From NCBI GenBank assembly GCA_023920165.1, contig CP089278.1, positions 124,001-188,000 of the forward strand: a stretch of DNA of 64,000 bases. Direction: 5' to 3'. The notes below the pieces were generated by a model, which worked only from the letters and a program-made list of their open reading frames with translations, searched no databases and had not been told where the DNA came from. Positions 26,758-28,640 of the stretch are shown here, piece after piece. The DNA comes from Curvularia clavata (taxonomy: Eukaryota). The translations under genes and the position numbers were made by a program. Position 1 is the stretch's first letter; the number at the start of each line of letters is the position of its first letter.

Positions 26758-28640
26758 CTATTCTACTGCATCAAGCCTCTGACCCTGGCTCTGACCCGTG
26801 TCTAACGAATCCCTTTTCCTTTTCTTTCCTGCTTCATAGTTGTCGCCACCCTGTGCTGCTGAAGTAACAGTAGCTTTGGTAGACGTAACTGATTCCGGCA
26901 TGAATTGCTTAAACTCTACTACCAGATCAGGAGCTGAGGCGAACAAGTCTCCTACTTGGGAGACGAGGTCCTGAACCGGCATCTCATCTCTCTGATAGGT
27001 CTTGAGCATTTCCAAAAACTGTTTGTATATACCTGGATGATCCGAAAAGCGATTCTTGATCTTGTTGACGTAGTCCAACGCGTCGTCAAACTCAACAGTG
27101 CGTTCAGTCAGACTTGTACTGCCATCTTCCTCCCCAGAAATGGTCAATGGTGGATAGAACACCTTTTCCTCCGACACTGATTGATATTTGGGGTCACTAG
27201 AAGATATGGAGTCATGATCCTGGAGGCCGGAAGTCTCGAGCGTATCGGGAGCATCATCACAGAGCTTAGGAGGATCCGAAAGCTCATCATGTGACAACCT
27301 CACGTTCCTGAAAATGCCCACATCTTCCTCCATAGACGAAAACTTAGCCCGTTTGTTCGCCCTATCAGTTTCGATTTTTTGAACTTCAGTTGGTGATGTG
27401 TCTGATAGCATGGAAATTGCGGATACAAGATCATGTAGGGGTCTTGGTCTCTTCTTAGTTGGTGAGAACCATACATTGCATTTACAGCTTCACATAGTCA
27501 GTAAAAACCGCGCGAGTAAGGTGAGCACTACGTACCAAGTCCTGCCACCACCAAGTGCTTTTGCCGTCTGAATGGAGTCACACCCTGGCATGGGACAGGT
27601 CTCATTCGTGAATATTGGGTGAACCACAACAATAGCCATGGTGATTGCTGTTCCCGGGAGTAACAAGGAGGTTTTCGAGAGAACATCACTGCTATTTCTC
27701 GTCTTAAAGTACTCATAATTGCCAGCTTGCACTTCCAAACGACCGGGACCAGTTTTGAACTTTTGTCGGATGATGGCGTCTAAAAGGTCAAAATCATATT
27801 CAGATGGCACAGGAAACTTGTAACCGAGGGCGTCTTCTACAGTCAGAGGAGCCTGGAAGAATGACCAACGCGTATCGGGGCCTGGTAGAGAGCTTTTAAT
27901 CTCGAGTATGACAGCGTATGTTTGCTGAGTTGAGACCCTGAATGCAAGTTAACATACCATCAAGTGCAAGATGTTGAATTGGGGACCCACAGTACTTTAG
28001 CCACCATGTCTCCCAAAGATCTCCACGAGGACCTCAATTCTCCGCTTACCATTGCAAACAGCTGCGAAAGCATATTTTGAGTGTTTTGTAAAGCCAAGAC
28101 CTGCGTTGCCAAGCTACCGTTGATAGTCTTTATGATATCACGAGTGCCATCCAACCTTTCCCGAATCTCAAGGTTGTAAGCGGCAGCCTTATCAGCGGCG
28201 ATATCCATTTTCTCTAAGCTGTGCTCAGCTAGCAGGATATTGATTGTTCCGATGTGAATGTTAAGGTAGCTCTGGAGTTTGCATATCTCTTCTTTACGAC
28301 CAAATCCAAACCGGAGCTTGATAGCTGAACTCTTCATAACGCCACCTCCTCCCCATACACCAAGAGATTTATCATATTGCCGGATCTTTCCTAGAAACTG
28401 CTCGAGAGGACGTCGACAGCTAAGAGCTGCGTATTTGATGGAGTCGAGGATTTCGGACGAGGATGAGGCGCCGACCTGTAGTTTGTCAAGGTGCTGGAGG
28501 ACGTGCTGGAGGCATTCGAGCTCGCGCAGAAGTTCTTGATATTCTGCTTTCGCACCTCCAGTGTCTTGAAGACAGGAGGAAATGTCTTTTACCAGGTTTC
28601 CAACAGCAATGAAGTCGCCAACCGAAAACCCAAAGGCCAT
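26758..28640 (-). CDS. Multidomain protein: STAND-type N-terminal domain + ubiquitin-like domain + Cys4 knuckle + Sin3 PAH2-like domain + NLS, ~593 aa
   Basis: Exons 28640-27991, 27937-27536, 27487-26758 join in frame over GT-AG introns. MAFGFSVGDFIAV; VEDALGYKFPVP...PGTAITM; CPMPGC...CCKC; [17 protein letters not shown]...PDLVVEFKQFMP; KKRKR. Confidence 0.8.

Follow-up and report, generated by a model that had tools for sequence, protein, structure and literature searches.

A stretch of 64,000 nucleotides from contig CP089278.1 of Curvularia clavata (positions 124,001 to 188,000 of the forward strand; hereafter the window) was analysed around a gene lying at positions 26758 to 28640 on the minus strand. 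The gene is intact, with 593 codons and a stop in three exons, and its product ends in a paired amphipathic helix (PAH) domain of the type that stands second in Sin3 (PAH2). Judged by homology, it belongs to an accessory family of the Pezizomycotina in which a constant chassis carries a swappable C-terminal module, here one PAH2 derived from Sin3. A preliminary description, made from the DNA letters, had read the region as a single gene for a STAND/HeLo-like protein with a captured Sin3 PAH2 domain and a nuclear localisation signal (NLS); our analysis bore out the single gene and the reading of its domains, but not the capture as a local event. The features of the gene, from the start of the protein onwards, are as follows.

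27991..28640, minus strand: exon 1; ATG at 28640; 216 codons plus 2 nt; the protein starts MAFGFSVGDFIAVG
28071..28556, minus strand: Pfam PigL_N (PF17111, formerly Helo_like_N), residues 29-190; 27.4 bits, cut-off 27.2
27938..27990, minus strand: intron 1, 53 nt, GTGGGT...CAG, phase 2
27536..27937, minus strand: exon 2, with a beta-grasp ubiquitin-like domain and the first half of a Cys knuckle
27625..27855, minus strand: ULD_2 (PF22893); Pfam 32.3 bits, cut-off 24.5
27478..27597, minus strand: Cys4 knuckle CPMPGC-x14-C-C-x-C, spanning intron 2; its Cys residues invariant or nearly so in the family alignments
27488..27535, minus strand: intron 2, 48 nt, GTACGT...AAG
26758..27487, minus strand: exon 3, 242 codons and the stop, with basic clusters, short conserved motifs, a variable linker, PAH2 and a basic tail
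27442..27456, minus strand: NLS-like basic cluster KKRPR, directly after the knuckle; family consensus S-x-KKRK
27406..27438, minus strand: conserved amphipathic motif LHDLVSAISML; family pattern L-x-D-L-hydrophobic-x-A-hydrophobic
27295..27312, minus strand: conserved motif FRNVRL; family consensus FKNVxL
26890..27096, minus strand: Pfam PAH domain of the Sin3 PAH2 type, residues 482-550 of 593
26812..26826, minus strand: NLS-like basic tail KKRKR, residues 572-576

Gene structure and the PAH2 domain

The three fragments that the preliminary description had joined do form one frame across two GT-AG introns, since the spliced exons give 1782 nt with no internal stop and end in TAG at 26760-26758. 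The gene model is more than a set of open frames because junction 2, which splits a Cys codon (TG before the intron, C after it), restores the motif CPMPGC-x14-CCKCNVWF, contiguous and conserved in annotated relatives, where its form across the junction is CPxPxC...GGGRxCCxCxVWF. At junction 1 the product reads VAKV-L-VSTQQ and most relatives have VAKV-C-VSTQQ. A branch-like TACTGAC stands in intron 2, 11 nt ahead of the AG used as acceptor, which is the first to follow it; as an AAG, this acceptor is of a less common type. Three database models (P0013, P0016 and P0023) run through 'GGGRxW' into the equivalent of intron 2 and then stop; as they read into the same intron, its position is common to other species. 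At 38 metagenome loci with relatives, the matches to exon 1, exon 2 and the start of exon 3 follow in series on one strand, and the gap between exons 1 and 2 measures 55-143 nt, with both on the same strand, in 35 of the 37 loci that hold both matches. By homology, the three exons are one gene.

Retention of intron 2 would bring in a stop after 20 codons (...GGGRTWYVVLTLLARFLLTM, then the stop) and give a form of about 370 residues with half of the Cys knuckle and without the basic clusters or the PAH domain. At the metagenome locus L020, the 51 nt that match intron 2 stay in frame and free of stops.

The C-terminal domain is a PAH of the Sin3 PAH2 type. The Pfam profile PAH (PF02671) matched with 49 bits (E 4.9e-13), well above its cut-off of 21.3, and by tblastn the Sin3 protein P0001 aligned to exactly 27096-26890, the segment that the preliminary description had placed ahead of the KKRKR tail. 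In BLASTP searches against two Sin3 proteins the second PAH was the best match, with identities of 60% (80 residues aligned) and 63% (73 residues aligned), the scores being 106 bits to the second PAH of Sin3 and 61 and 34 bits to the other PAHs. Against yeast Sin3, for which there are solved structures, PAH2 (405-495) reached 81.9 bits, PAH1 30.2 and PAH3 15.2, and custom hidden Markov models (HMMs) gave the window domain 114.4 as PAH2 and 52.1 as PAH1. In a tree of 51 PAH units the domain fell in a clade with all 11 Sin3 PAH2 domains and eight other PAHs of the family (support 87/98), the Sin3 PAH3 units standing apart (support 100/99). Of 39 positions at which the 11 Sin3 PAH2 domains are all identical, it retains 30, and the nine changes are all conservative (N>D, I>L, I>M, Q>K, I>V, V>L, Y>V, L>V and L>M). 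The Sin3 reference set consists of 11 database proteins.

All 11 of these Sin3 proteins have a histone deacetylase (HDAC)-interaction domain, the Sin3 C-terminal region and three PAH units. In the three exons of the window gene, Pfam searches gave no match to the HDAC-interaction domain (PF08295), to the Sin3 C-terminal region (PF16879) or to NACHT/NB-ARC, which bears out the preliminary description on the absence of NACHT and of further Sin3 domains. The gene does not count as a Sin3, since it lacks the HDAC-interaction region that defines one, nor as a nucleotide-binding, NOD-like receptor (NLR), since it lacks a nucleotide-binding domain. Compared with the Sin3 PAH2 domains (yeast 405-495; the mSin3A/B structures 1g1e, 1e91, 2f05 and 6xaw), the window PAH is 59-63% identical to the fungal ones, whereas the protein around it has only 593 residues and lacks PAH1, PAH3, the HDAC-interaction domain and the Sin3 C-terminal region. 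A second or relic PAH, a paralogue of the gene and a Sin3 gene were sought elsewhere in the 64-kb window and none was found.

The chassis, its family and the history of the PAH module

Exon 1 encodes a domain of about 215 residues that appears to be distantly related to the HeLo-like/PigL_N domains, with borderline membership of PF17111. The HeLo-like N-terminus claimed earlier was recovered by PigL_N barely over the cut-off (27.4 against 27.2 bits), the match covering profile positions 33-186 of 209, and Rx_N matched exon 1 below threshold, with 20.6 bits. Among the 42 relatives described below, PigL_N was found at E<=1e-3 in 29. Nine of these come up to the cut-off, and in two of the nine the qualifying match is an additional copy at the C-terminus. 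The start of the protein is conserved: M1, G4 and D9 are invariant, S2, F3, F5, S6, G8, A12 and L16 occur in at least 90% of 41 rows, and the invariant extreme N-terminus includes G4-x3-G8. An AlphaFold2 (AF2) model of exon 1 built on 41 aligned sequences (mean pLDDT, the predicted local distance difference test score, 79.4) is entirely helical, with four shorter helices followed by helices 101-175 and 177-198. In the VIA structure search this domain matched the N-domain of MLKL (4btf, Z 9.3; 6ux8, Z 8.8), the coiled-coil (CC) domain of MLA13 (Z 8.6) and the CC-R domain of NRG1.1 (Z 8.5); the alignments start at the N-terminus of each target and span model residues ~7-140. Among its top Foldseek rows, all weaker than E 1e-3, were potato Rx-CC (TM 0.60-0.66 on the target) and NRG1.1 CC-R. 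In a language-model atlas the neighbours of exon 1 were PigL_N/SesA clusters of Ascomycota.

The domain in exon 2 is ubiquitin-like, as a profile search with ULD_2 confirmed (32.3 against 24.5 bits). By profile score the protein clearly belongs to the ULD_2 and PAH families and stands at the border of PF17111. An AF2 model of exon 2 (pLDDT 84.5) has a beta-grasp fold. In Foldseek, no PDB row for this model reached E<=1e-3; nearly all the rows listed, and all the top ones, at E 3e-3 or weaker, were ubiquitin, ubiquilin, ISG15, midnolin or other ubiquitin-like (UBL) domains, with TM ~0.5-0.63 on the target and probability 0.97-1.0 for ubiquilin, ISG15, ubiquitin and midnolin. The Cys4 knuckle that follows is a putative zinc-binding site.

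As for the NLS of the preliminary description, basic clusters resembling such signals are present and a nuclear role is putative. Three clusters fit the K-K/R-x-K/R rule, and two are conserved in relatives; by that rule we take KKRPR to be a putative NLS. Equivalents of the tail follow PAH2 in L020 (KKRKRG), L001 (RKRKRD), P0025 (RRKRAR) and P0053 (KRRKRTK). The motif LHDLVSAISML resembles both a Sin3-interaction helix and a nuclear export signal. A complex prediction of PAH2 (exon-3 residues 125-205) with the conserved segment after the knuckle (residues 1-70), made without use of alignments and aimed at docking of this helix in cis, gave a score of 0.22 against a mark of 0.34 and weighs neither way.

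A search with exon 1 among longer proteins recovered 42 relatives, all from Pezizomycotina, of 381-1075 residues and 43-70% identical to exon 1; the same kind of search with exon 3 recovered just the 11 Sin3 proteins and missed the family. In the databases the relatives are named 'hypothetical' or 'ubiquitin-like domain-containing'. They share a chassis made of the MSFGFSVGDF N-domain, the beta-grasp domain, the Cys4 knuckle split by intron 2 and the basic clusters, with ULD_2 matched in 41 of the 42. The C-termini differ, as the survey suggested in the preliminary description brought out: PAH occurs in 13 of the 42, from three fungal classes, and Ank, HET, RA and C2H2 in one protein each, while a custom HMM added a divergent PAH in P0039 and the vestige of one in P0044. 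A profile search of 1.84 billion representatives matched 381 clusters at E<=1e-30; at E<=1e-10 the number rises to 2350, the weak matches possibly belonging to neighbouring families. Among the 150 matches listed were 145 new proteins, and the 35 of these with at least 380 residues included three with PAH, four with PP-binding, one with Vts1 and one with C2H2. NACHT/NB-ARC was found by Pfam in none of the 42 relatives and in none of the 35 further members.

The family is often mis-annotated because an intron lies inside the Cys knuckle, and the database count of C-terminal domains (13 of 42) therefore understates them, since P0013, P0016 and P0023 end within that intron. At the DNA level, where annotation errors have no effect, a PAH lies downstream on the same strand in 15 of the 21 metagenome loci where exon 2 is matched in full and the sequence continues downstream for at least 900 nt (16 loci with L015 added).

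Members of the PAH2 type span Dothideomycetes (P0012), Leotiomycetes (P0048) and Sordariomycetes (P0035), and the order of motifs is constant across the three classes: knuckle, S-x-KKRK, amphipathic motif, FKNVxL, variable linker, PAH2, FLPE and a basic cluster. The closest relative is the metagenome locus L020 (75% identity in exon 1, 81% in exon 2, 63% in PAH), which has the same layout including the KKRKR tail and ends in GKKRKRG, where the window protein has GKKRKRD and 17 more residues. P0015 of Parastagonospora nodorum (583 aa) shares the architecture and the motif order, and P0012 of Bathelium mastoideum (777 aa) is 73% identical over the first 374 columns. The window gene is collinear from end to end with L020, L001, L003, P0012 and P0015, and the PAH is conserved in relatives, whereas the linker is not alignable. 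Compared with P0012, P0015 and L020, the window gene has the same architecture and motif order and differs in the number of PAH units (three in P0012, one here) and in its neighbours.

Two further kinds of member were observed. In the Pseudogymnoascus proteins P0020 (residues 429-610) and P0022 (residues 430-528) a second, canonical PigL_N stands at the C-terminus, with 214 and 103 bits, respectively; this may reflect a true fusion, or else a neighbouring gene merged into the model. At L035:729-4003 and L036:657-3964, divergent copies 34-38% identical in exon 1 lie in tandem on one contig, and no PAH follows either.

By model scores, PAH2-type units occur in the window gene, P0012 (three units), P0015, P0025, P0035, P0048 and P0053 and at the loci L001 (two units), L004, L006, L007, L019, L020, L025 and L031, and PAH1-type units in P0019, P0032, P0034 and P0043 and at L002, L008, L009, L013, L015, L016 and L027; the PAH of P0029 is ambiguous between the two types. 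In a chassis tree, built on the first 375 residues, PAH1 and PAH2 types are interleaved, and well-supported branches force at least three changes each; there the window protein groups with P0012, P0013, P0014 and P0015 (support 98). Locus L003:11151-12527 has a PAH2-type unit and then a PAH1-type unit split by an intron, and L002:11151-12129 is a near-copy of it that lacks only the PAH2 segment. As L003 holds both types and its near-copy has lost the PAH2 part, differential loss appears to explain the interleaving. An ancestor with both PAH types, followed by loss and duplication of units, fits the data at least as well as repeated capture, and the well-supported branches of the PAH tree are compatible with a single origin. 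Repeated independent capture of PAH from Sin3 was considered and is disfavoured as the main explanation by the two types in L003 and the missing PAH2 of L002.

The window PAH is 59% identical to Pezizomycotina Sin3 PAH2 and 38-51% identical to the PAHs of annotated family members, whereas five Pezizomycotina Sin3 PAH2 domains have a mean mutual identity of 89%; the family PAHs (38-51% mutual identity) thus evolve much faster than Sin3 PAH2, which is the pattern expected of old copies from a donor that changes slowly, the copies having diverged at a higher rate since. On these comparisons, the PAH fusion is ancient and family-wide, and has repeatedly undergone duplication of units, exchange between PAH1 and PAH2 and loss, with no recent capture in this genome. 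The word 'captured' in the preliminary description, taken as a local event, therefore does not hold: PAH2-type members occur in three classes and L020 has the same layout.

Genomic neighbourhood

The region 15280-35714 of the window looks like a metabolic gene cluster. The genes recognised around the family member are listed here.

15280-19044, plus strand: non-ribosomal peptide synthetase (NRPS)-like reductase in three open frames, with AMP-binding, AMP-binding_C_3, PP-binding and NAD_binding_4
19718-21676, minus strand: subtilase
21973-23327, minus strand: three open frames, 125-196 codons long, flanked by the subtilase and transporter genes; no Pfam match at E<=1e-4
24346-25497, minus strand: major facilitator superfamily (MFS) transporter
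29334-31339, plus strand: carboxylesterase
31906-33369, minus strand: cytochrome P450
34203-35714, plus strand: cytochrome-b5/FAD (flavin adenine dinucleotide) reductase

Further neighbours are a 3-hydroxyacyl-CoA dehydrogenase and an AATF homologue. The last frame of the NRPS-like reductase includes a P-loop kinase-like AAA_33/SKI region (residues ~700-860), which is either an unusual fusion or a neighbour joined by read-through. None of the 17 open reading frames scanned with Pfam between 15280 and 41788 matched an NLR domain. The neighbours in the window are shared by none of the 38 related loci (tblastn, E<=1e-10), and at the 13 long related loci the neighbours are mostly housekeeping genes. 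At L027:6231-9530 (plus strand) there is a CHAT+NACHT frame whose end lies ~470 nt upstream of a family gene, the C-terminus of which is of the PAH1 type, and at L016:3961-6240 (minus strand) a TPR_12/TPR_10 frame lies near a family gene; these two are the sole NLR-like neighbours at the 13 long loci.

Proposed function and alternatives

The groove of Sin3 PAH2 binds amphipathic helices of transcription factors, as the titles of the structures 1g1e and 2l9s echo. If the window domain behaves like its Sin3 counterpart, its groove would bind helices of the Sin3-interaction domain (SID) type from nuclear proteins, or mimics of these. As PAH3, the HDAC-interaction domain and the rest of Sin3 are absent, the protein cannot assemble the co-repressor, and binding would be uncoupled from deacetylation. 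On these two steps, its immediate activity is probably the capture of Sin3-PAH2 ligands without recruitment of a deacetylase. The basic clusters would then bring the protein to the nucleus and, in the last and weakest step, capture of a ligand at the C-terminus would be reported to the HeLo-like/ubiquitin-like module at the N-terminus, which would be the output. Such an arrangement has a paradigm in HeLo, MLKL and CC domains, where a C-terminal regulatory part restrains an N-terminal bundle. Taken whole, with the last step included, the chain would make the protein a modular sensor coupled to an effector without a nucleotide-binding module, a proposal that we hold tentatively and at somewhat less than even chance. 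Our preference for it comes from the affinity of the N-domain to PigL_N/SesA, from a free N-terminus that is invariant and has G4-x3-G8, from C-termini that are swapped, from near-copies that differ in whether they have a given PAH unit, and from the paralogues in tandem at L035 and L036; swapping of C-termini on a constant chassis fits a sensor or bait.

Several observations weigh against this proposal. In Foldseek, the exon 1 model had no PDB row at E<=1e-3, and generic, unrelated helical bundles reached Z 10.8 against the N-domain, above the MLKL and CC matches, so that the fold evidence is compatible with a HeLo-like domain without singling it out. When hhalign was run with the family N-domain against the canonical C-terminal PigL_N of P0020 and P0022, the alignment was collinear, at just 17% probability. 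Residues 1-19 have a mean hydropathy of 0.97, far below that of a membrane helix, and the N-domain, at 70-75% identity to the nearest relatives, shows a strong conservation that is not typical of an immune part in rapid evolution. Pfam found no nucleotide-binding or oligomerisation module in the window gene, and no C-terminal amyloid motif was noticed there, no dedicated search for one having been made. NLR-like neighbours occur at two of the 13 long loci, which by a rough estimate is about chance level. Finally, the conserved basic clusters, the Cys knuckle and the C2H2 and Vts1 C-termini of relatives would suit an adaptor that is nuclear or linked to nucleic acids.

Such an adaptor is the strongest of the alternatives. 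The protein could be a nuclear competitor of Sin3 or an alternative co-regulator whose PAH2 titrates SID-bearing factors away from Sin3/HDAC, or tethers them elsewhere, without any part in death or sensing; we regard this as rather unlikely taken by itself, and yet as nearly as likely as the sensor proposal. It agrees with the 30 of 39 Sin3-invariant positions kept in PAH2, with the absent HDAC-interaction domain, with the three basic clusters of the K-K/R-x-K/R type, two of them conserved, and the conserved Cys knuckle, with the C2H2 and Vts1 C-termini in the family and with the non-specific fold of the N-domain. However, the family is patchy, multi-copy and domain-swapping, unlike a core regulator, its PP-binding, RA, Ank and HET C-termini are no chromatin modules, and the invariant free N-terminus and the PigL_N/SesA affinities would be left unexplained. 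The sensor proposal can also be extended to a form of fungal surveillance without NLRs, in which a HeLo-like/ubiquitin-like executioner chassis would be fused to baits from conserved hubs (Sin3 PAH1/PAH2, PP-binding, Vts1 and others), a foreign factor targeting PAH2 would release the N-terminal module and the cell would be killed or arrested; the window gene would be the version with the Sin3-PAH2 bait. We consider this extension speculative and quite unlikely.

The ubiquitin-like domain suggests a different role, that of a shuttle in which the beta-grasp domain would serve for docking to the proteasome, like the UBLs of ubiquilin, Rad23 and midnolin, and PAH2 would pick SID-bearing nuclear proteins as cargo for degradation. 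The beta-grasp fold confirmed by the exon 2 model and the UBL-type Foldseek rows, the basic clusters and a swappable C-terminal binding module, which suits a cargo selector, speak for it, but similarity of fold, with Foldseek E values of 3e-3 or weaker, is by itself no proof of proteasome binding, the UBL is internal and the 215-residue domain before it would have no explanation, and Pfam found no UBA or other known shuttle element in the three exons; a shuttle seems improbable to us. We give even less credit to an accessory of the PigL kind that would regulate or protect the neighbouring metabolic cluster, PigL_N proteins being found in pigment and toxin clusters. The neighbourhood is cluster-like and the Pfam family is named for a pigment-cluster protein, PigL itself presumably having ankyrin repeats like P0024; yet none of the 38 related loci shares the neighbours, and the 13 long ones lie mostly amid housekeeping genes. 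Least probable, and hardly credible in our opinion, is that there is no single functional gene, exon 3 being separate or the locus decaying and the 593-residue frame an artefact of joining. The gene model was indeed built from sequence, the AAG acceptor is uncommon and retention of intron 2 would end the protein at residue ~370, but the 1782-nt frame is intact, junction 2 restores the conserved Cys motif, and the end-to-end collinearity with L020, L001, L003, P0012 and P0015, with a conserved PAH and an unconserved linker, speaks against an artefact.

The window protein also shares features with two other known systems. The text of a survey of fungal NLRs (PMC9815663) describes HeLo-like (HELL)/PigL_N as N-terminal domains of NLRs and of amyloid-activated executioners such as HELLP. 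Like these, the window protein has a predicted N-terminal helical bundle with a conserved free N-terminus and alignments to MLKL and plant CC domains; unlike them, it has no NACHT/NB-ARC, and its N-domain precedes a ubiquitin-like domain, a Cys knuckle and C-terminal domains of the globular kind. The second likeness is to plant NLRs with integrated domains, among which the Toll/interleukin-1 receptor-type NLR (TNL) At4g12020 of Arabidopsis has WRKY, kinase and PAH domains, its PAH being listed as integrated in the text of PMC5067614. As in those receptors, a domain copied from a host hub, here the Sin3 PAH, is fused to what may be an immune-type N-terminal module, and relatives differ in the domain integrated; unlike them, the family has no chassis of NB-ARC and leucine-rich repeats (LRR), and a decoy function is here purely hypothetical. 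A full-text search of the literature returned no description of this architecture, none that pairs a HeLo-like with a ubiquitin-like domain and none that names PF22893. The texts of the NLR surveys PMC12258605 and PMC9815663 make no mention of a PAH or an ULD_2-type domain, although their supplementary tables may list such architectures.

Known fungal HeLo-like domains are parts of NLRs or amyloid-activated executioners; here, a domain that appears related to them stands with a ubiquitin-like domain ahead of swappable globular domains, mostly PAH. If these C-termini are baits or sensors, the family would represent a simpler design of immune-type receptor, and would suggest that microbial conflict is directed at the PAH surfaces of Sin3. 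With C-termini that serve for targeting, it would be an unstudied set of nuclear adaptors able to intercept the clients of Sin3. In either case this is a large family (381 clusters at E<=1e-30).

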